A DNA stretch of 32,000 nucleotides from contig CAKQHZ010000002.1 in NCBI GenBank assembly GCA_934246625.1, forward strand, positions 185,112 through 217,111. Reading direction: 5' to 3'. The notes below the pieces were generated by a model. The model saw only the letters and a list, made by a program, of their open reading frames with translations. It searched no databases and was not told the origin of the DNA. The stretch comes from an uncultured Alphaproteobacteria bacterium (GTDB taxonomy: Bacteria; Pseudomonadota; Alphaproteobacteria; Rs-D84; CACZYB01). A program made the position numbers and the translations under genes. This document shows, one piece after another, positions 4,580 through 24,219 of the stretch (position 1 is its first letter; each line of letters begins with the position of its first letter).

Positions 4580-5461
4580 ATGAAGCGTTTTGGCAAAGTT
4601 TTTGCACGATTTATTTGTGTCTTTATTTTAAATAAAAATTTACGAAGAAGGGTTCGTTGGATATTGGACCCTTGTTCTCCACCAAATTTGATAAAATATT
4701 TTGGGAAAAAGTATTTGCCGAAAGTTCAAATTTCAAAAAAATTTAATTGTGGGGAAAAATCAGATTATATTTTTCAATGTTGGCTTCAAGGGTATGATAA
4801 TGCTCCAAATATTGTAAAAAATTGTATTGATAGTGTGGAAAAATTTAAGGGGCATAGAAAACATATTATTATTACAAATGAAAATCTTTCTGATTGGGTG
4901 AATATACCACAATTTATTTTGGACAAGTATAAAAATGGTGAAATAGGTCATGCTCATTTTGCAGATATTTTGCGACTTTATTTACTTTCACAATATGGTG
5001 GGTATTGGATTGATACGACTTGTTTAATGACAGATAATATTCCTGATGTTATTGAGAATAGTAATTTCTTTATGTTCCACTCTTCTGGAAAATGGGAGTG
5101 GACATTGATAAATAATTGTTTTATCCGTTCGTATAAGGAAAATAGTTTTATTAACTCTTGGCGTGATATGTTGACTGAATATTGGAGGGGTGAAAATAGG
5201 GCGTTGGATTATTTCTTTTGCCATTTGCTTTTCAGGACATTGCTTTTGAATCCAATGTTGAAATCTGAATTCGATAAAATGCCAATTATTTCACAAGAGG
5301 AGATTCACAAACTTGCTTTTTGTTTGGGAGATGAGTTAAATCAAAAACAAATTGATGAGGTTTGTAAAGTTTCATTTATACAAAAACTGACTTATAAATT
5401 ATCAAATGGAGAGTTTGATAATCCAAAGTCAGTTGCGTCAATATTAAATAAAAGAGATTAG
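4580..5461 (+). CDS. capsular-polysaccharide-synthesis-type glycosyltransferase (Caps_synth-like)
   Basis: 293 aa, with the ATG abutting the obg stop (TAGATG). The block QCWLQGYDNAP...HFADILRLYLLSQYGGYWIDTTCLM resembles PF05704/Gly_transf_sug-type sugar transferases. Confidence 0.65.
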   Translation: MKRFGKVFARFICVFILNKNLRRRVRWILDPCSPPNLIKYFGKKYLPKVQISKKFNCGEKSDYIFQCWLQGYDNAPNIVKNCIDSVEKFKGHRKHIIITNENLSDWVNIPQFILDKYKNGEIGHAHFADILRLYLLSQYGGYWIDTTCLMTDNIPDVIENSNFFMFHSSGKWEWTLINNCFIRSYKENSFINSWRDMLTEYWRGENRALDYFFCHLLFRTLLLNPMLKSEFDKMPIISQEEIHKLAFCLGDELNQKQIDEVCKVSFIQKLTYKLSNGEFDNPKSVASILNKRD

Positions 5462-6888: not shown

Positions 6889-7629
6889 TTATAGTTTGAA
6901 ATGTTCACCAAGATAAACTTTGCGGACATCTGTGTTGCAAACTATTTCATTTGGGGTGCCTTCGCATAGCACAGTTCCGTTGTGAAGAACATAAGCACGG
7001 TCAGTAATTTCCAATGTTTCACGAACGTTGTGGTCGGTGATTAAAACTCCGTATCCCTTATCCTTTAGGTGTGAAACAAGGTTTCTTATATCATTTACAG
7101 CGATAGGGTCAACACCAGCAAATGGTTCGTCAAGCAAGATAAAGTCAGGATTTGCTGCCAATGCTCTTGCAATTTCAAGACGACGTCTTTCACCACCAGA
7201 AAGGGCGATTGCAGGGCTTTCACGTAAATGTGTAATTGAAAATTCGGCAAGAAGTTCATCAAGTTTTTGATTACGTTTGTCTTCGTATGGTTCAACGACT
7301 TCTAAAACTGCCATAATGTTGTCTTCAACTGAAAGTGAGCGGAAGATTGAGGATTCTTGAGGAAGATAGCCAATTCCCTTTTGTGCACGGTGATAAAATG
7401 GAAGTTTTGTTATATTTTCACCATCTAAAGTAATAGAACCTGTGTCAGGTGTTATTAGTCCAGTTATGCAATAAAAACATGTTGTTTTTCCAGCACCATT
7501 TGGACCAAGGAGACCGACTGCTTCGCCTTGTTTTACATGAATAGATACATTTTTCAATACTGGGCGTTTTGAATAACTTTTTGCAATGTTTTTTACAATG
7601 ATTTCTTTTACTTTATTTTCGTTTTCCAT
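6889..7629 (-). CDS. lptB: LPS export ABC transporter ATP-binding protein
   Basis: 246 aa. Walker A GPNGAGKTT, signature LSGGERRRLEIARAL, Walker B ILLDEPFAGVDP. LptB-like overall and adjacent to lptA. Confidence 0.9.
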   Translation of the reverse strand: MENENKVKEIIVKNIAKSYSKRPVLKNVSIHVKQGEAVGLLGPNGAGKTTCFYCITGLITPDTGSITLDGENITKLPFYHRAQKGIGYLPQESSIFRSLSVEDNIMAVLEVVEPYEDKRNQKLDELLAEFSITHLRESPAIALSGGERRRLEIARALAANPDFILLDEPFAGVDPIAVNDIRNLVSHLKDKGYGVLITDHNVRETLEITDRAYVLHNGTVLCEGTPNEIVCNTDVRKVYLGEHFKL

Positions 7630-15183: not shown

Positions 15184-15836
15184 TGAAAAAAAATATTTTA
15201 ATATCTGCAAGTTTAACATCAACTGATTATTTTGATATAGAAAAAACTATTGCTTTGGTAAATAGCTCTTCTGTGGATAGGATTCATTTTGATGTTATGG
15301 ACGGTGTATTTGTGCCAAATATTACCTATGGTCCAGATTTTATTTCATCGGTTAAATTACACACAAAAAAATTTTTTGATGTGCATCTTATGATTATCAA
15401 TCCTTTGTCCTATATTGAAAGATTTGTTGATGCTGGTGCAGATTTGATAAGCGTGCATATTGAGGCAAAAAATACTATGAAGTCGATAAAACTTATTAAA
15501 TCTTTTGGTGTGAAGGCAGGGATTGTTATCAATCCAAAGACCAGTTATAAAAAGGTTTTGAAGTATTTGGATTTTGTTGATGAAGTTATGGTGATGAGTG
15601 TTGAACCTGGGTTTGGTGGGCAAAAATTTATTGTTGATGTTGTGCCAAAAATTCAAAAAATTTCACAAATTATAAAAAGTAAAGGTAAAAAAATTTTGTT
15701 GCAAGTTGATGGTGGAATCAATTTTGAAACGGGTAAACTTGTTATTGATAGTGGTGTTAATTCTTTGGTTGTTGGAAGTTTTTTATTTAATCAAAAAAAT
15801 TTTGATAAAACAGTTCTTAAATTAAAAAGTTTATAA
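15183..15836 (+). CDS. rpe: ribulose-phosphate 3-epimerase
   Basis: 217 aa. Motifs HFDVMDGVFVPNITYGP, DVHLMI, MSVEPGFGGQKF and VDGGIN. Its start overlaps the ABC gene stop (TGATG). Confidence 0.95.
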   Translation: MKKNILISASLTSTDYFDIEKTIALVNSSSVDRIHFDVMDGVFVPNITYGPDFISSVKLHTKKFFDVHLMIINPLSYIERFVDAGADLISVHIEAKNTMKSIKLIKSFGVKAGIVINPKTSYKKVLKYLDFVDEVMVMSVEPGFGGQKFIVDVVPKIQKISQIIKSKGKKILLQVDGGINFETGKLVIDSGVNSLVVGSFLFNQKNFDKTVLKLKSL

Positions 15837-15848
15837 TCTATATTTTTA

Positions 15849-15877
15849 TTTACAAAAATTTAATTATGTATTAAGAT
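15849..15877 (+). promoter_or_regulatory. candidate sigma70 promoter driving the structured RNA and Cys-rich gene
   Basis: TTTACA (15849-15854), 17-nt spacer, TAAGAT (15872-15877), just after the rpe stop. This would place a transcription start near 15884. Confidence 0.4.
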
Positions 15878-15909
15878 GAAATTAGGTTTGGAAGTTATTC
15901 TGAACTTAG

Positions 15910-16100
15910 TGTCCTTAATGGATACGGGATTGTCGAAGGTCCTTTATAGTCTGCGTATAACGCAATGTTATATGGTAAATGCCCCCGCCTTTAGTGGGGA
16001 GCCCTTGATGTATGTTCAGAGGATATATCTTTATGTCCTTAAAGATCTTGTGGAATCATTTCAGACTATATGATTTTCGAACTCCCCGCCGTTAAGGATA
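15910..16100 (+). ncRNA. candidate structured RNA (class unknown; possibly a 6S-like RNA or a long cis-regulatory leader of the downstream gene)
   Basis: Visibly GC-enriched relative to its flanks. The 5' arm 15910-15953 pairs with the 3' arm 16062-16100 in four near-contiguous helices: 15910-21/16089-100 (12 bp), 15925-28/16085-88 (4 bp), 15933-41/16072-80 (9 bp) and 15945-53/16062-70 (9 bp). Four G-U pairs would be A-C mismatches on the other strand, which favours the + strand. The apical region of about 108 nt holds hairpins at 15981-16002 and 16027-16046. Confidence 0.45.
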
Positions 16101-16149
16101 AATGGGAAAAATTTTTGTGTTTTTGCACAAAATAAAGGGGAAAAAGAAC

Positions 16150-16518
16150 ATGAACAAGAAGTTATCAATATTGGTATCTACATTTTTATGTGTAGCGTTA
16201 TCATCTAATGTAAAATCAGAAACATTAATAGAGTCATTACAAAGGTATTGTGTGCCAACTGCTGAAGTTTGCGGAACTGTGGCAAGGGCAACATACAACA
16301 CATCGGAAAGTGCTTGCGAGTGTTCGGCTTGCGGAATGTATTATGATAAAACTTCCAGAAGTTGTCAGACTTGTCCAGAGGGAACTTATGTGAACAACAG
16401 ATACTCCACAGAGTGCATAAGGCCAGATTGTGGCATAGGCAATTATGGAGTTGTTGAAACTGGCAAAACCGATTGTGGAATAGGATTTTACAAAGTAGCT
16501 TTATCCAGTTGTAAATAG
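16150..16518 (+). CDS. small secreted cysteine-rich protein (TNFR/ephrin-receptor-like CxxCPxGTY module)
   Basis: Listed ORF 16102..16518. The ATG at 16150 has an AAGGGG RBS 9 nt upstream and yields signal peptide MNKKLSILVSTFLCVALSSNVKS. The mature part has 11 Cys, including CECSACGMYYDKTSRSCQTCPEGTYVNN...EC and the duplicated DCGIG(N/F)Y. Confidence 0.7.
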   Translation: MNKKLSILVSTFLCVALSSNVKSETLIESLQRYCVPTAEVCGTVARATYNTSESACECSACGMYYDKTSRSCQTCPEGTYVNNRYSTECIRPDCGIGNYGVVETGKTDCGIGFYKVALSSCK

Positions 16519-16524
16519 GAGATA

Positions 16525-16567
16525 TGGGAGGAGGTATTTTCTTATGGTTTTTGCTTCCTCCCTCCCA
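16525..16567 (+). other. GC-rich stem-loop just after the Cys-rich gene stop (possible terminator or SD-sequestering hairpin)
   Basis: TGGGAGGAGG (16525-16534) pairs with CCTCCCTCCCA (16557-16567) with one bulged C and a 22-nt loop. There is no clear U-tract afterwards, so it is not a canonical intrinsic terminator. Confidence 0.4.
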
Positions 16568-16600
16568 AAAGATAAGATGAGGTGTTTAATGAGAAAAAGA

Positions 16601-16667
16601 GTCAGCACAAAAGTACGAAGTGCAACGGTAGCCCTAAAGGGACGGAGGGCAGTTGCTTTGCTGACAT
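16601..16667 (+). other. nested GC-rich stem-loop (unknown function)
   Basis: Three nested helices: GTCAGCA (16601-07)/TGCTGAC (16661-67), GCAAC (16622-26)/GTTGC (16652-56) and GCCCT (16631-35)/AGGGC (16646-50). Confidence 0.35.
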
Positions 16668-16738
16668 ACTAAACCCTTAAAGAAAAATAAGAAAAATGGA
16701 GAAATAATGGAAAAGTTTTTAAAACTAGAACCTTATAA

Positions 16739-16774
16739 GAGCACACCCCGCAAGGGGGGGTAAGGGGTGTGCTC
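16739..16774. repeat. perfect 11-bp GC-rich inverted repeat (hairpin)
   Basis: GAGCACACCCC (16739-16749) and GGGGTGTGCTC (16764-16774) flank GCAAGGGGGGGTAA. An alternative inner CCCC-GCAA-GGGG tetraloop hairpin is possible. Confidence 0.5.
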
Positions 16775-16775
16775 G

Positions 16776-16799
16776 GTAAAATTGATGTATCAATTTTAC
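16776..16799. promoter_or_regulatory. perfect 24-bp palindrome, candidate operator overlapping a putative -35 of the second Cys-rich gene
   Basis: GTAAAATTGAT gt ATCAATTTTAC: 11-bp arms with a 2-nt centre. Its right arm overlaps TTTACA (16795-16800), which lies 18 nt upstream of TAATAT (16819-16824). The gene ATG is at 16854. Confidence 0.35.
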
Positions 16800-16853
16800 A
16801 TACATTAAAATTAAAAACTAATATTAACAAACTAAACTGAAAGGTAAAATAAA

Positions 16854-17573
16854 ATGGGAAAAATGAAAAATATGAACTTATTGTTGGTAATGACAACTTT
16901 GCCAATGACTGCAAAAGCCGATCTTTTTAAATGTATGGCTTGTACTAATAAACCTGCTAACGCTCACTATACATCCGGCGGAACCAATACCTCCAATTGC
17001 TCTTGGTCTTGCGATAGCGGATATACTAAAAATGATAATTTATGCTGTGCAAATAAACCTGATAATTCTTATTATTACTCCAATAATTGTGGTTGGAATT
17101 GTAATAGCGGGTATGCATCTTGTAATAGTCGTTGTATTAAAGATGAAAGAATTGCGAATTCATCATACAATTCAAGTTGTGAGCTAGAATGTAATAAAGG
17201 ATATAAACCTGTTTATACAACAACTGGTGGAGGTTGTTCATTTACTGTGAAGACTTTATCTGAGTGTAAAGTTGATCCTTGGGTTCACTGTGCGACAACA
17301 GCTAATGCTATATATATTCAATTTACTCATACTACTGAATATGGTGAATCATGTGCTAGCTCACAAAGAAAATATTATTCTGCGGGAACTTCATTTAATC
17401 CTGTTTTTAGAAGTTGGGAAAAAGGTAGGTGTGCTTATGTGATGTTTAGAATATATAAAACATCAGATCAAACACTTTTAAAAACAGTATCAGTCAGCGT
17501 TTTCAAGACACAATTTGATTATGACCAAAGATATATTTATTGTGATGGAAAACTTCAAAAATATACTGAATAA
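16854..17573 (+). CDS. secreted cysteine-rich repeat protein (EGF-like CxWxCxSGY repeats plus a C-terminal domain of about 110 aa)
   Basis: 239 aa with a GAAAGG RBS 9 nt upstream. Signal peptide ...MKNMNLLLVMTTLPMTAKA. Three tandem modules: KPANAHYTS..NCSWSCDSGYTKNDNLC, KPDNSYYYSNNCGWNCNSGYASCNSRC and IANSSYNSSCELECNKGYK. A terminator follows. Confidence 0.75.
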   Translation: MGKMKNMNLLLVMTTLPMTAKADLFKCMACTNKPANAHYTSGGTNTSNCSWSCDSGYTKNDNLCCANKPDNSYYYSNNCGWNCNSGYASCNSRCIKDERIANSSYNSSCELECNKGYKPVYTTTGGGCSFTVKTLSECKVDPWVHCATTANAIYIQFTHTTEYGESCASSQRKYYSAGTSFNPVFRSWEKGRCAYVMFRIYKTSDQTLLKTVSVSVFKTQFDYDQRYIYCDGKLQKYTE

Positions 17574-17576
17574 AAA

Positions 17577-17601
17577 AGAAAAGGGGTTTTGCCCCTTTTT
17601 T
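17577..17601. terminator. bidirectional rho-independent terminator between the convergent Cys-rich gene and epmA
   Basis: GAAAAGGGG ttttg CCCCTTTTTTTT: a GC stem flanked by an A-run on one side and a T-run on the other, so it reads as stem plus U-tract on both strands. Confidence 0.8.
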
Positions 17602-18660
17602 TTATAGTGTTGGAATTTCGGTCCAAAGAATATCCTTTATATCATTTGCACCAGTTGAAAGCATTATTAAGCGGTCAATTCCCATTGCAATGCCAGTGGC
17701 TGGGTCCATATTTTCTATGGCTTCGATAAAACTTTCATCAATAGGATATGTTATGCCGTATAATTCCTTTTTTGTTTGCATATCGTGTTCAAAGCGAGCA
17801 CGTTGGATTTTTGCATCGGTTAGTTCGGTGAATGCATTTGCAAGTTCAACTCCACAAACATAAAGTTCGAATCGTTCAGCAATATTTTTATTGGTATCCT
17901 TTGCCTTTGAAAGGGCAGCTTGATGAATTGGATATTCATAAAGGATTGTTGGTTTTTCACAGCCAAGATTTGGTTCAATATATTCGAACATAAGTTTTTC
18001 GTATATGTCGTCCCATGTATCAATTTGTGATACGTTGATGTTTAGTGATTTTGCCTTTTCTTCCAATAAATGTTTTGATGGGTTTTCTGGATTATCTATT
18101 GTTGCGAGTATATCAAAGTGGCAAAATTTTTCAAATGCTTCCTTTACAGTTAATTTTTCCATACCATTAAATGGAGAACATTTTTTACCATTGTGTTCAA
18201 AAAATTCTTTGCCGATTGATGATAATGCGGATTTTAAAATTTTTTCGCAATCGTCCATAAGTTTTGTATAGTCGTAATGTAATCTATACCATTCTAACAT
18301 TGTGAATTCAGGATAGTGTGTAGGAGATACAATTTCGTTTCTGAAGGTATGAGTAAATTGATAGATATTTTCCATACCGAAACTTAGCAATTTTTTCATT
18401 GCGAATTCAGGTGATGTATGAAGGTATAAAGTTTTTGGGTTTGTGCCAGTTATGTCCAAAAATTTTGTTTCAAATGCGGTAAGGTGGACTTCCATTCCTG
18501 GGCAATATTGAAGGATAGGGGTGTCAACTTCGGTAAAAGATTCTGTTGAAAAAAATTTTTTGATTGCGTTTATGATTTTGTTTCGCATCAAAAGAAAAGG
18601 AAGTTTCCTTTTGAAAACTTCCCTTGCTTTGTATGTATGTAAATTATTATTTTGCATCAT
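17602..18660 (-). CDS. epmA: EF-P (R)-beta-lysine ligase (PoxA/GenX, truncated class II LysRS paralog)
   Basis: By-eye alignment to E. coli EpmA: FTEVDTPIL, TSPEFAMKKLL, FRNE...HYPEFTMLEWY, ERFELYVCGVELANAFTELTD, GIAMGIDRLIML. The listed ORF extends to 18795, but those 45 low-complexity codons overlap rplY. The ATGs at 18660/18657 fit the family N-terminus. Confidence 0.88.
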   Translation of the reverse strand: MMQNNNLHTYKAREVFKRKLPFLLMRNKIINAIKKFFSTESFTEVDTPILQYCPGMEVHLTAFETKFLDITGTNPKTLYLHTSPEFAMKKLLSFGMENIYQFTHTFRNEIVSPTHYPEFTMLEWYRLHYDYTKLMDDCEKILKSALSSIGKEFFEHNGKKCSPFNGMEKLTVKEAFEKFCHFDILATIDNPENPSKHLLEEKAKSLNINVSQIDTWDDIYEKLMFEYIEPNLGCEKPTILYEYPIHQAALSKAKDTNKNIAERFELYVCGVELANAFTELTDAKIQRARFEHDMQTKKELYGITYPIDESFIEAIENMDPATGIAMGIDRLIMLSTGANDIKDILWTEIPTL

Positions 18661-19315
18661 TTGTTTCTTCAGCTTTCTTTGCAGCCTTTTCTTCTTGAGC
18701 AGAAGGAACTTCAGCTGATACAGGAGCTTCTGTTTCAACAACTTCTTCAACAGCAGAAGTAATTGTTGCGATTGTGAATGGTTCGTGTGATGCAAATCTT
18801 AAACCATTTGGTAATTTAACAGATGTTGAGTGAATTGATTCAGCAACATCAAGGTTTTGAACATCAACTTCGATTGCGTCAACCATATCTGATGCTTTAC
18901 AGATAACTTCAGCTGAACGGCTAACGATGTTAAGAACAGCACCTTTTTTAACACCAGCACAAATGTCTTCGTTGATAAATTTGAATGGGATTTCAACAGT
19001 AATTTCTTTGTTCAAATCAATTCTTAAAAAGTCAACGTGAATAGGACAATCTTTTACTTTGTCGTATTGAATTGCTTGGCAAAGTGCAAGTTCTTTTTTA
19101 GCTTTACCTTCAATTTCAAGTTCAAATTGACGAGTTCTGAAACCCTTTGTTTGCATTTGTTTAAGTAAATCTTTTGGAGTAATAGAGATAAGTTCAGGAT
19201 CTTGTTTATTTCCATAAATAACAGCAGGAATTAAACCAGCTCTTCTTGTTGCACGTGCGGCCCCCTTACCACTTGTTTGTCTTGGTTTTACATTTAAAAC
19301 TACTTTATTTGTCAT
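18647..19315 (-). CDS. rplY: 50S ribosomal protein L25 (long Ctc form)
   Basis: 222 aa. N-terminus RQTSGKGAARATRRAGLIPAVIYGNKQDP, a second beta-domain, and an acidic/Ala-rich C-terminal tail. Confidence 0.92.
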   Translation of the reverse strand: MTNKVVLNVKPRQTSGKGAARATRRAGLIPAVIYGNKQDPELISITPKDLLKQMQTKGFRTRQFELEIEGKAKKELALCQAIQYDKVKDCPIHVDFLRIDLNKEITVEIPFKFINEDICAGVKKGAVLNIVSRSAEVICKASDMVDAIEVDVQNLDVAESIHSTSVKLPNGLRFASHEPFTIATITSAVEEVVETEAPVSAEVPSAQEEKAAKKAEETNDAK

Positions 19316-23837: not shown

Positions 23838-23863
23838 AAAGCCTCCTTTAAAATTATAAAATA

Positions 23864-23892
23864 TATTATATTTGTTTTGTTGGATATAGTCA
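23864..23892 (-). promoter_or_regulatory. near-consensus sigma70 promoter of nrdG
   Basis: Minus strand reads TTGACT (23892-23887), 17-nt spacer, TATAAT (23869-23864), upstream of the AAAGGAGG RBS and the nrdG ATG at 23837. Confidence 0.6.
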
Positions 23893-23900
23893 AGAAAAGC

Positions 23901-23932
23901 ATAAAATAAAACCTCTCGAAAATGAGAGGTTT
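23901..23932 (-). terminator. rho-independent terminator after the small nrdD-fragment ORF
   Basis: Perfect 9-bp stem AAACCTCTC (23909-17)/GAGAGGTTT (23924-32) with a 6-nt loop. On the minus strand it is followed by TATTTTAT. It sits 20 nt after the stop at 23953. Confidence 0.7.
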
Positions 23933-23952
23933 TTAATCAATAAATTTTGTTG

Positions 23953-24153
23953 TTATGCAATCTTTTTATCATAAACACAATTGCAATTCATTGAGGATAA
24001 TGTAGCAGATTCTGTGAAATATTTTCTTTCATAAAATTCTGATTTTTTACCTTTGTTAAAATTAGCAACTGGACGGCAATATCCCATAGCACGAGTCCAA
24101 ATTTCACATTTAGTTCTTTTGCTGTTATCTAATTTTTTTTCAAATGTTTCCAT
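23953..24153 (-). CDS. stand-alone glycyl-radical domain of class III ribonucleotide reductase (NrdD C-terminal fragment)
   Basis: 66 aa. CEIWTRAMGYCRPVANFNKGKKSEFYERKYF aligns by eye with the NrdD glycyl-radical loop (E. coli RRVCGYLGSPDARPFNAGKQEEVKRR). Its own AAGGAGG (24165-24159) lies 5 nt upstream of the ATG. Confidence 0.8.
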   Translation of the reverse strand: METFEKKLDNSKRTKCEIWTRAMGYCRPVANFNKGKKSEFYERKYFTESATLSSMNCNCVYDKKIA

Positions 24154-24219
24154 TATATCCTCCTTATGTTTTGTTAATATTATTATATTCCTTTTTTCTT
24201 ATGTTATCAATATCAAAAT

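Follow-up and report, generated by a model that had tools for sequence, protein, structure and literature searches.

What is contained in the GC-enriched spacer that separates rpe from the gene of a Cys-rich secreted protein in a low-GC gut bacterium? The question is raised by a stretch of 32,000 nucleotides (nt) of contig CAKQHZ010000002.1 (positions 185,112 to 217,111, forward strand) from an uncultured Alphaproteobacteria bacterium; this whole stretch is hereafter called the window, and all coordinates are window positions. The spacer holds a conserved folded RNA. With modest confidence, the region of about 15884–16149 is assigned to a structured 5' leader of the mRNA of g1, the Cys-rich protein gene, presumably acting in cis on g1 expression, and to an RNA family that had not been described and is restricted to one small low-GC group of gut Alphaproteobacteria. 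The case is solid for the structure and tentative for the function.

A conserved folded RNA on the plus strand

An earlier note on this DNA had described the spacer as GC-enriched, and the GC content is indeed 0.415 at 15900–16099 against 0.22–0.33 in the flanks. The RNA fold of 15900–16110 on the plus strand reaches −75.9 kcal/mol, compared with −49.4 ± 4.6 kcal/mol in dinucleotide shuffles (z = −5.76; 0 of 200 shuffles as good), and its minimum-energy structure holds all four helices that the note had proposed from the complementarity of the two ends, here named P1, P2a, P2b and P3 and together termed the rod. The minus strand of the same region folds to −53.7 kcal/mol (z = −3.4), 22 kcal/mol weaker than the plus strand. 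The conserved unit extends from the hairpin P0 to a UGGGA motif (15886–16107, plus strand, about 220 nt) and is longer than the approximately 190 nt first suggested. The apical domain inside P3 is a junction of three to five separate hairpins, namely H1, H2, H4 and lineage-specific ones; a 7-bp hairpin formerly placed at 16027–16046 competes with H4, and it is H4 that covaries. The features are collected in Table 1.

Table 1. Features of the RNA and of its immediate surroundings, in window coordinates
Feature	Position	Strand	Description
Sigma-70-like promoter	15849–15877	+	TTTACA-17-TAAGAT; predicted transcript start near 15883–15885
P0, 5'-terminal hairpin	15886–15905	+	GUUUGGAA-GUUA-UUCUGAAC; 8 pairs, 100% paired in 8 rows, 6 pairs altered on both sides
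Alternative local hairpin, rival of P1 for the 5' strand	15909–15925	+	GUGUCC-UUAAU-GGAUAC; 6 pairs, 100% paired in 8 rows
P1, outermost rod helix	15910–15921 with 16089–16100	+	12 bp, 2 G-U in the window; 14 aligned pairs, 7 altered on both sides, 94% paired
P2a	15925–15928 with 16085–16088	+	CGGG/CCCG; invariant across lineages; 5 bp in L166/L169
P2b	15933–15941 with 16072–16080	+	9 pairs (2 G-U in the window), 100% paired, 3 altered on both sides
P3	15945–15953 with 16062–16070	+	9 bp in the window; 9 of 10 aligned pairs altered on both sides
H1 hairpin	15954–15974	+	Compensatory U-A to C-G, window versus L009; GGUGCU/AGCACU in L008, CGAUG/CAUCG in L166
H2, GC hairpin	15981–16002	+	Invariant GGGGAG (15996–16001); GGGG/CCCC core kept; distal part varies in length with compensation
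H4 hairpin	16020–16039 (16020–16027/16032–16039)	+	AGGAUAUA-UCUU-UAUGUCCU; covaries; conserved CAGAG and UUAAAG on the flanks
Junction sequence	16052–16061	+	GGAAUCAUUU, conserved; UCAUU (16056–16060) invariant
3' strands of P3, P2b and P2a	16062–16088	+	Include invariant GAACU
UGGGA just past the rod	16103–16107	+	Window, L009, L008, L166, L169; near-matches UGGAA in L168, UGGGU in L010
Small AU-rich hairpin	16113–16132	+	Between rod and ribosome-binding site; not a terminator
Shine-Dalgarno and start codon of the Cys-rich signal-peptide gene	16137–16152	+	GGGGA (16137–16141); start codon 16150–16152
g1	16150–16518	+	122-aa secreted Cys-rich protein, hypervariable

Seven same-species contigs carry the spacer at 99.4–100% identity. 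Sources of the contigs include ERZ27286929 and SRR25477420. A search anchored on rpe yielded independent versions in L009, L008 (identical to L158–L165), L166/L168 and L169, as well as 5' fragments in L167, L170 and L173, and an nhmmer profile revealed a divergent copy at L010:7198–7463. Each version folds alone to the same architecture, the L010 core having a z of −6.3 (mononucleotide shuffles). The architecture is shared by about seven independent lineages of one narrow clade: the window, L009, L008, L166/L168, L169, L010 and the 5' fragments L167/L173.

The pairing persists while the paired sequences are exchanged. P0 is replaced by unrelated paired sequences in L169 (GUUCUGA/UCAGAAU) and L010 (UAUAGCAA/UUGUUAUA); P3 exists as four unrelated sequences (UAUAGUCUG, UAGUAAUAUC, AAGUGUAG, UGACUAAAA), all perfectly paired; and P2b exchanges CGAA/UUCG, CAGA/UCUG and GAAA/UUUC, with a G15932–C16082 pair across the bulged A16081 kept in every lineage. 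The 3' strand of P1 covaries with the loop nucleotides of the local hairpin (UUAA/UUAA, GCGAAU/GUUUGC, GAGA/UUUC). P2a is invariant and therefore uninformative for or against the structure. In the apical domain, H4 covaries (GAGUAUGC/GCAUGUUC, GAAUAUGU/ACAUAUUU, GGAAU/AUUCU) and carries an insertion in L169, H2 grows to 10–11 bp in L166/L010, and an additional hairpin follows H1 in the L166 clade and L010. The invariant motifs of the RNA are GGGGAG, UCAUU, GAACU and CGGG/CCCG. In all lineages the UCAUU junction can pair with the AAUGG/GAUGAY segment at 15917–15922 (5–7 bp), a possible third pairing.

In a helix table built for each lineage, 398 of 409 cells are canonical in register, compared with 32–49% after sliding the 3' strand by 1–3 nt, and G-U occupies 65 cells versus 4 for A-C. 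Since MAFFT misaligned the apical domain of the full-length RNAs across clades, a hand-built, N-padded alignment of equal-length sequences (A6; P0 and rod, eight rows) was used, which MAFFT gave back ungapped. A6 was matched to the structure manually and covers no part of the apical domain; on it, 98.2% of the rod cells are paired (32–47% with slid partners) and 25 of 46 pairs are altered on both sides. Its covariation score of 0.59 compares with 0.23 in shuffles, and 0 of 500 shuffles attain even one of the five measures. This argument is strongest in two places, the controls with slid partners and the complete turnover of whole helix sequences. RNAalifold, applied to the unedited window-clade sequences, independently recovered the rod together with H1, H2 and H4, and 11 pairs of this fold are changed on both sides. 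The excess of G-U pairs and the strand asymmetry of 22 kcal/mol show selection on a plus-strand RNA, the strand that the note had chosen from its tolerated G-U pairs, and not on a DNA inverted repeat.

A DNA-level element, either a miniature inverted-repeat transposable element (MITE) or an inverted-repeat recombination or inversion site serving variable-gene exchange, had to be weighed at this point. Bacterial MITE-like repeats (Correia, ERIC, Rickettsia palindromic elements) are intergenic, 100–200 bp long, bear terminal inverted repeats and fold as RNA once transcribed. The element resembles them in size class, RNA folding and terminal inverted repeats (about 34 bp, around about 110 bp); its GC content is unlike that of the flanks, it is located exactly at the border of a hypervariable island, and its copy in L009 is mosaic. 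It differs from these repeats in being single-copy, both in the 32-kb window and in each fetched locus, in its strand-asymmetric pairing and in its fixed position relative to promoter and gene, and it has one orientation in all contigs. The 65 G-U pairs would be A-C mismatches on the other strand, and the compensatory changes rewrite the sequence wholly (P3), whereas a recombinase site would keep it. Neither recombinase, transposase nor reverse transcriptase was found among the genes of the 32-kb window, and BLAST against plasmid and phage collections gave no match. The DNA-level explanation is largely refuted and is held to be very improbable.

Protein coding was considered as well, as gene callers annotated a 65-aa open reading frame (ORF) at 15876–16073 on several contigs, and an in-frame upstream start exists at 16102. 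The ORF, the translation of which the earlier note had named as evidence against an RNA, is not conserved: it is closed after 9 codons in L008 (ATGAAAATATGTTTAGATTTTTATATCTAA) and is not kept in the L166 clade. In L008/L009 the ATG at 16102 is cut off by a stop two codons on, and L169 lacks this ATG; the substitutions track base-pairing, not codon position. A coding function is given hardly any credence.

Position of the RNA and its linkage to the Cys-rich gene

The promoter-like site predicted earlier was recovered (Table 1), and in all lineages the same place is occupied by a promoter-like site with the same 17-nt spacing, such as TTGAAA-17-TATTAT in L158, TTGAAA-17-TATCAT in L168 and TTTACT-17-TATATT in L010. 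No further promoter-like site ahead of g1 was found in the window; g1 should therefore be transcribed through the RNA, which is a 5' leader by position. A terminator-like site between the RNA and the ATG at 16150 was likewise not found in the window, in agreement with the note, nor in L008 and L009. As to an intrinsic terminator of rpe, which was rejected, the only plus-strand terminator-like sites in 15500–16700 are the 5-bp tip of H1 (15952–15964) and a site at 16314–16334 inside g1.

The order promoter, RNA, Shine-Dalgarno sequence and g1-type gene is found in the window, L009, L008/L158, L166, L168 and L169, and in six lineages the rod is followed within 50–110 nt by a Cys-rich gene that encodes a signal peptide and the motif (L)xxxLxKYCVP. 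Two g1 homologs in a library of 1.84 billion proteins have over-extended N-termini that represent the translated 3' part of the RNA ('MIFELP' = AUGAUUUUCGAACUCCCC in P0060; 'MGK..' = AUGGGAAAA in P0048). In L156, L157 and L172, rpe abuts a convergent tRNA-synt_2/epmA-like gene and neither the RNA nor the Cys-rich genes are present at the rpe locus, that locus alone having been examined; the rpe of relatives lacking the RNA is equally similar (P0007 75%, P0024 77%). As the sequences at the rpe locus show, the RNA and the island of Cys-rich genes occur together or are missing together, and the RNA would belong to this island. The reading as a long cis-regulatory leader, one of those offered in the note, fits both this linkage and the position.

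The copy at L010:7198–7463 lies behind an outer-membrane-protein-like gene, 2.5 kb from rpe. Behind it come a Shine-Dalgarno sequence, a 9-codon remnant ORF and a hairpin followed by a U-run; only after these does a g1-like gene begin, which has a ribosome-binding site of its own.

A stand-alone small RNA (sRNA), trans-acting or binding a protein as 6S does, would be made from its own promoter and either processed from a co-transcript or partly terminated at a 3' hairpin with a U-run. Such an RNA would agree with the conserved promoter, with the long rod formed by its 5' and 3' ends, a feature of many stable sRNAs, with U6–U8 just after the 3' local hairpin in L166, L168 and L010, and with conservation of the RNA while the gene behind it is exchanged. 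The intact L010 copy, with no full-length ORF directly behind it and then a hairpin and U-run, would suit an RNA whose function does not depend on the neighbouring gene. 6S RNA, the parallel drawn in the earlier note, is similar in length (about 190 nt), in its ends forming a long irregular rod, in having its own promoter and in being read into the downstream gene (E. coli ssrS is co-transcribed with ygfA). However, 6S has a central bubble and a terminal stem mimicking an open promoter, whereas the window RNA has an apical multi-hairpin junction, and no match to 6S (RF00013) was found in the window, in 15700–16300 at E ≤ 10 or in six homolog loci at E ≤ 5; nor did these searches give any other relevant Rfam match. 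Moreover, the window RNA is tied to an accessory gene island and is missing along with it at the rpe locus, which is unexpected for a housekeeping RNA, though a copy could lie elsewhere in the genome. The missing terminator before the ATG in the window, L008 and L009, and the missing separate promoter-like site for g1, also speak against a stand-alone RNA. The 6S comparison is accordingly not supported, and a stand-alone sRNA of any kind is considered unlikely.

Another explanation keeps the RNA as a leader, but a constitutive one, which stabilises or processes the mRNA of an abundantly produced secreted protein (as an ompA-type stabiliser or RNase III site) and senses no signal. P0 lies within a few nt of the predicted 5' end in all lineages, the rod, an interrupted RNA duplex of about 34 bp, could plausibly be cut by RNase III, and the Shine-Dalgarno sequence is unpaired in the minimum-energy fold of the window (unpaired probability 0.94). 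On the other hand, a stabiliser needs no conserved four- to five-way junction with invariant single-stranded GGGGAG, UCAUU, GAACU and UGGGA, and no two conserved alternative partners for one strand. A purely structural leader is therefore allotted a small share of the probability only.

Known RNA families and a possible switch at the rod base

The absence of a known family, as the earlier note had supposed, was borne out by covariance models and ARAGORN. Rfam 15 cmscan at gathering thresholds gave no match in the whole 32 kb; at E ≤ 10, the 601 nt of 15700–16300 returned just mir-583, DUF3800-XI (minus strand) and Pseudomonadales-1, at 11–15 bits against thresholds of 38–80, and at E ≤ 5 the six homolog loci gave nothing relevant. 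RNase P RNA, signal recognition particle (SRP) RNA and the riboswitch classes described in Rfam 15 were rejected in this way, no covariance-model match having been obtained in the window or the homolog loci. Transfer-messenger RNA (tmRNA), including the two-piece alpha_tmRNA, was matched neither by Rfam nor by ARAGORN, which found no tRNA or tmRNA in the window; a T-loop-like UUCGAAC is the 3' strand of P2b and covaries (UGCGAAC, UCUGAAC, UUUCAAC). An RNA thermometer of the ROSE or fourU type was also rejected: the Shine-Dalgarno sequence is unpaired in the minimum-energy fold (mean unpaired probability 0.94), and the element is about 220 nt long with a complex junction.

Sequence patterns were no more productive. 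A scan of viral contigs with TTNCGAACTCCCCGCC gave 47 matches and a scan of JGI metagenomes with TGGATNCGGG-N{130,160}-CGAACTCCCCGC gave 20, all by chance, the latter all in GC-rich DNA. In the part of a human-microbiome structured-RNA catalogue consisting of 200 of its 408 supplement files, the core strings were not found (PMC8040213).

The nearest counterparts are orphan riboswitch candidates and large structured 5' leaders, such as yjdF and raiA before or without ligand assignment (reviewed in PMC7266159). The window RNA shares with them (i) a place in the 5' untranslated region (5' UTR), directly before one gene class and in several lineages; (ii) covarying helices in an aptamer-like fold; (iii) a junction with invariant unpaired nucleotides; (iv) peripheral hairpins of variable length; and (v) a closing helix whose 3' strand lies beside the ribosome-binding site. 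It differs from them in having no Rfam match, in its restriction to about seven lineages of one clade, and in its partner gene, which encodes a hypervariable secreted protein and not a transporter or enzyme, and therefore gives no hint of a ligand. The RNA is read as a new clade-restricted family, of the type of a covariation-supported structured 5' leader or riboswitch candidate. If true, the few conserved leaders that lack an assigned signal would be joined by a structured RNA family of fairly large size (220–290 nt).

A switch within the leader had been suggested earlier as an 8-bp pairing of GUGGGGAG with CUCCCCGC, exclusive of the rod. This pairing is possible in every lineage (6–9 bp). 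It rests, however, on G-run/C-run composition and is much weaker than the local GC hairpin in L166, L168, L169 and L010; the GGGGAG/CUCCCC alternative seems to arise incidentally from the presence of two G4/C4 helices, and wherever H2 reaches 10–11 bp it is implausible on energetic grounds. What the sequence comparison suggests is rather a contest at the rod base, between the local hairpin 15909–15925 and the long-range P1. The distal strand and GGAUAC are both conserved as partners of the P1 5' strand. In constrained folding of six full leaders, the ensemble energies of the two states differ by 0.1–4.6 kcal/mol, and the Shine-Dalgarno sequence is predicted to be more exposed in the P1-closed state in five of the six lineages (0.94 versus 0.22 in the window).

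A switch at the rod base is possible and might operate as follows. The 5' strand GUGUCC(UUAAUGG) would pair either with 16089–16100, as P1, or locally with GGAUAC (15920–15925). With P1 closed, the conserved junction domain would be closed as well, the 3' strand sequestered and the Shine-Dalgarno sequence free (ON). With the local hairpin formed, the released C-rich 3' strand could pair with the downstream G-rich ribosome-binding region or, in L166, L168 and L010, could form a hairpin followed by a U-run; expression would be OFF or attenuated in both cases. Whether P1 or the local hairpin prevails would depend on a ligand or protein bound to the conserved junction.

Several observations weigh against a regulatory leader of g1 or against its switching, apart from the hand-fitting of A6 and the narrow range of lineages given above. 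The L010 copy keeps every helix despite having just the 9-codon remnant directly behind it. The Shine-Dalgarno sequence is already free in the minimum-energy fold of the window, so the leader could be constitutively ON. The substitutions in the local hairpin amount to one pair altered on both sides (C-G to A-U) and two altered on one side, and this hairpin may form only as an intermediate during transcription. What would serve as the expression platform differs between lineages: an extra hairpin is present in the window and in L008/L009, where it is a different one of 10 bp, while the L166 clade has none, a U-run taking its position in L166 and L168 and also in L010. A terminator scan after the RNA in L168 and L010 flagged nothing, and the 3' hairpins before U6–U8 in L166, L168 and L010 are weak (−6 to −7 kcal/mol, z about −1); for these reasons termination at the 3' end is kept as a mere possibility.

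A structured cis-acting leader of g1 is still the favoured assignment. Its extension to a new sensor class, i.e. a riboswitch or a protein- or ion-responsive leader, the junction of which would bind a signal, toggle the rod base and gate an antigenically hypervariable secreted Cys-rich protein, is put forward tentatively, as a possibility well short of an even chance.

The hypervariable genes and the surrounding locus

The gene behind the RNA changes abruptly between strains. Strains L002–L006 are at least 99% identical to the window through the leader up to 16157 and again from 17599, so that the border of the conserved and the variable part is at codon 3 of g1. The 1.4 kb between (16158–17598), with both Cys-rich genes (g1 at 16150–16518 and g2 at 16854–17573), are not alignable by blastn, and in strains with flanks at least 99% identical the allele proteins share 42% (g1) and 35% (g2) identity. 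The g1 of L088 is a mosaic of two allele types. Sub-threshold Ephrin_rec_like/TNFR-like matches were obtained for three g1 alleles, and an AlphaFold model of g1 was unusable (pLDDT 40). A HMMER scan of 1.84 billion representatives placed the g1 family in about 50 clusters at 50% identity, nearly all of 110–150 aa; a word-indexed search for homologs of the Cys-rich proteins gave 2 only.

Wholesale allele swaps between otherwise near-identical strains are usually tied to host or phage interaction, and conserved 5' regions are known from antigenic-variation loci such as Mycoplasma vsa/vlp and Campylobacter fetus sap. The window locus resembles the latter in its invariant leader, ribosome-binding site and start codon followed by a radically strain-variable surface or secreted gene, and in its mosaic alleles. 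It differs in that no recombinase or silent cassettes were seen in the 32 kb of the window, and in that the conservation of the leader tracks RNA base-pairing, not a DNA recombination site. To our knowledge, no regulatory RNA has been described for these uncultured low-GC gut Alphaproteobacteria. The locus is one of extreme allelic diversity, with complete replacement of two secreted Cys-rich proteins among strains whose remaining sequence is at least 99% identical, and a conserved RNA controlling it would, if true, give a handle on when the bacteria display the variable proteins. Should the sensor reading hold, a surface factor that evolves fast and faces host or phage would have an RNA switch of its own, which stays constant as recombination exchanges the gene that follows.

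Exchange has touched the RNA itself. The rpe and RNA phylogenies conflict, the rpe of L009 and L008 being 92.5% identical and their RNAs 76% identical. The L009 RNA (4637–4978) resembles the window in its core (84%) and L008 in its promoter, P0 and 3' tail (L008:4655–4980; window 15837–16152). This mosaic and the discord with rpe therefore indicate recombination inside the leader.

Contig ends are frequent in the region. Two independent contigs, L167:3158–3312 and L173:1820–1974, stop at the same base of the RNA (..GCTATTTTTTTATAC), at the onset of a palindromic insertion hairpin, and this shared end is probably an assembler break at the palindrome. Many others (L008, L009, L159–L165 and L010) have their breaks within the Cys-rich gene, in keeping with heterogeneity among strains.

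Further hairpins were noticed in the island. Directly after the g1 stop codon, a strong one (GGGAGGAGG...CCUCCCUCCC) occupies 16526–16562; a related hairpin with a U-run stands behind the orphan RNA copy of L010, at about 7520–7565, and the N-terminal over-extension 'GGSCFF..FLPP' of the g1 homolog P0040 resembles a translation of this element, which may act as a terminator or else belong to the island as a small mobile module. At 16741–16775, in the g1–g2 spacer of 335 nt (75 nt in other strains), lies a GC-rich hairpin of 11 bp, its stem without mismatches (AGCACACCCC...GGGGUGUGCU), followed by a second AU hairpin.

The window as a whole is core chromosome of a low-GC (32%) Gram-negative anaerobe, and the nearest genomes by rpe are Alphaproteobacteria metagenome-assembled genomes (MAGs) from animal gut (70–72% amino acid identity, full-length protein). 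Its genes include mscS, kdtA, obg, an lptA-type gene, ligA, ftsQ, ftsA and an ABC exporter, and further rpe, an epmA-like class II synthetase paralog, the L25 gene, nrdD/nrdG and sufB. A second long spacer (382 nt, 23838–24219), upstream of the anaerobic ribonucleotide reductase gene nrdD, is without Rfam match. The longest ORF of the epmA-like gene (397 aa, TTG start; 17602–18795) overlaps the L25 gene (18647–19315) by 149 nt on the minus strand, and since gene callers use a 352-aa form, the true start probably lies further downstream.

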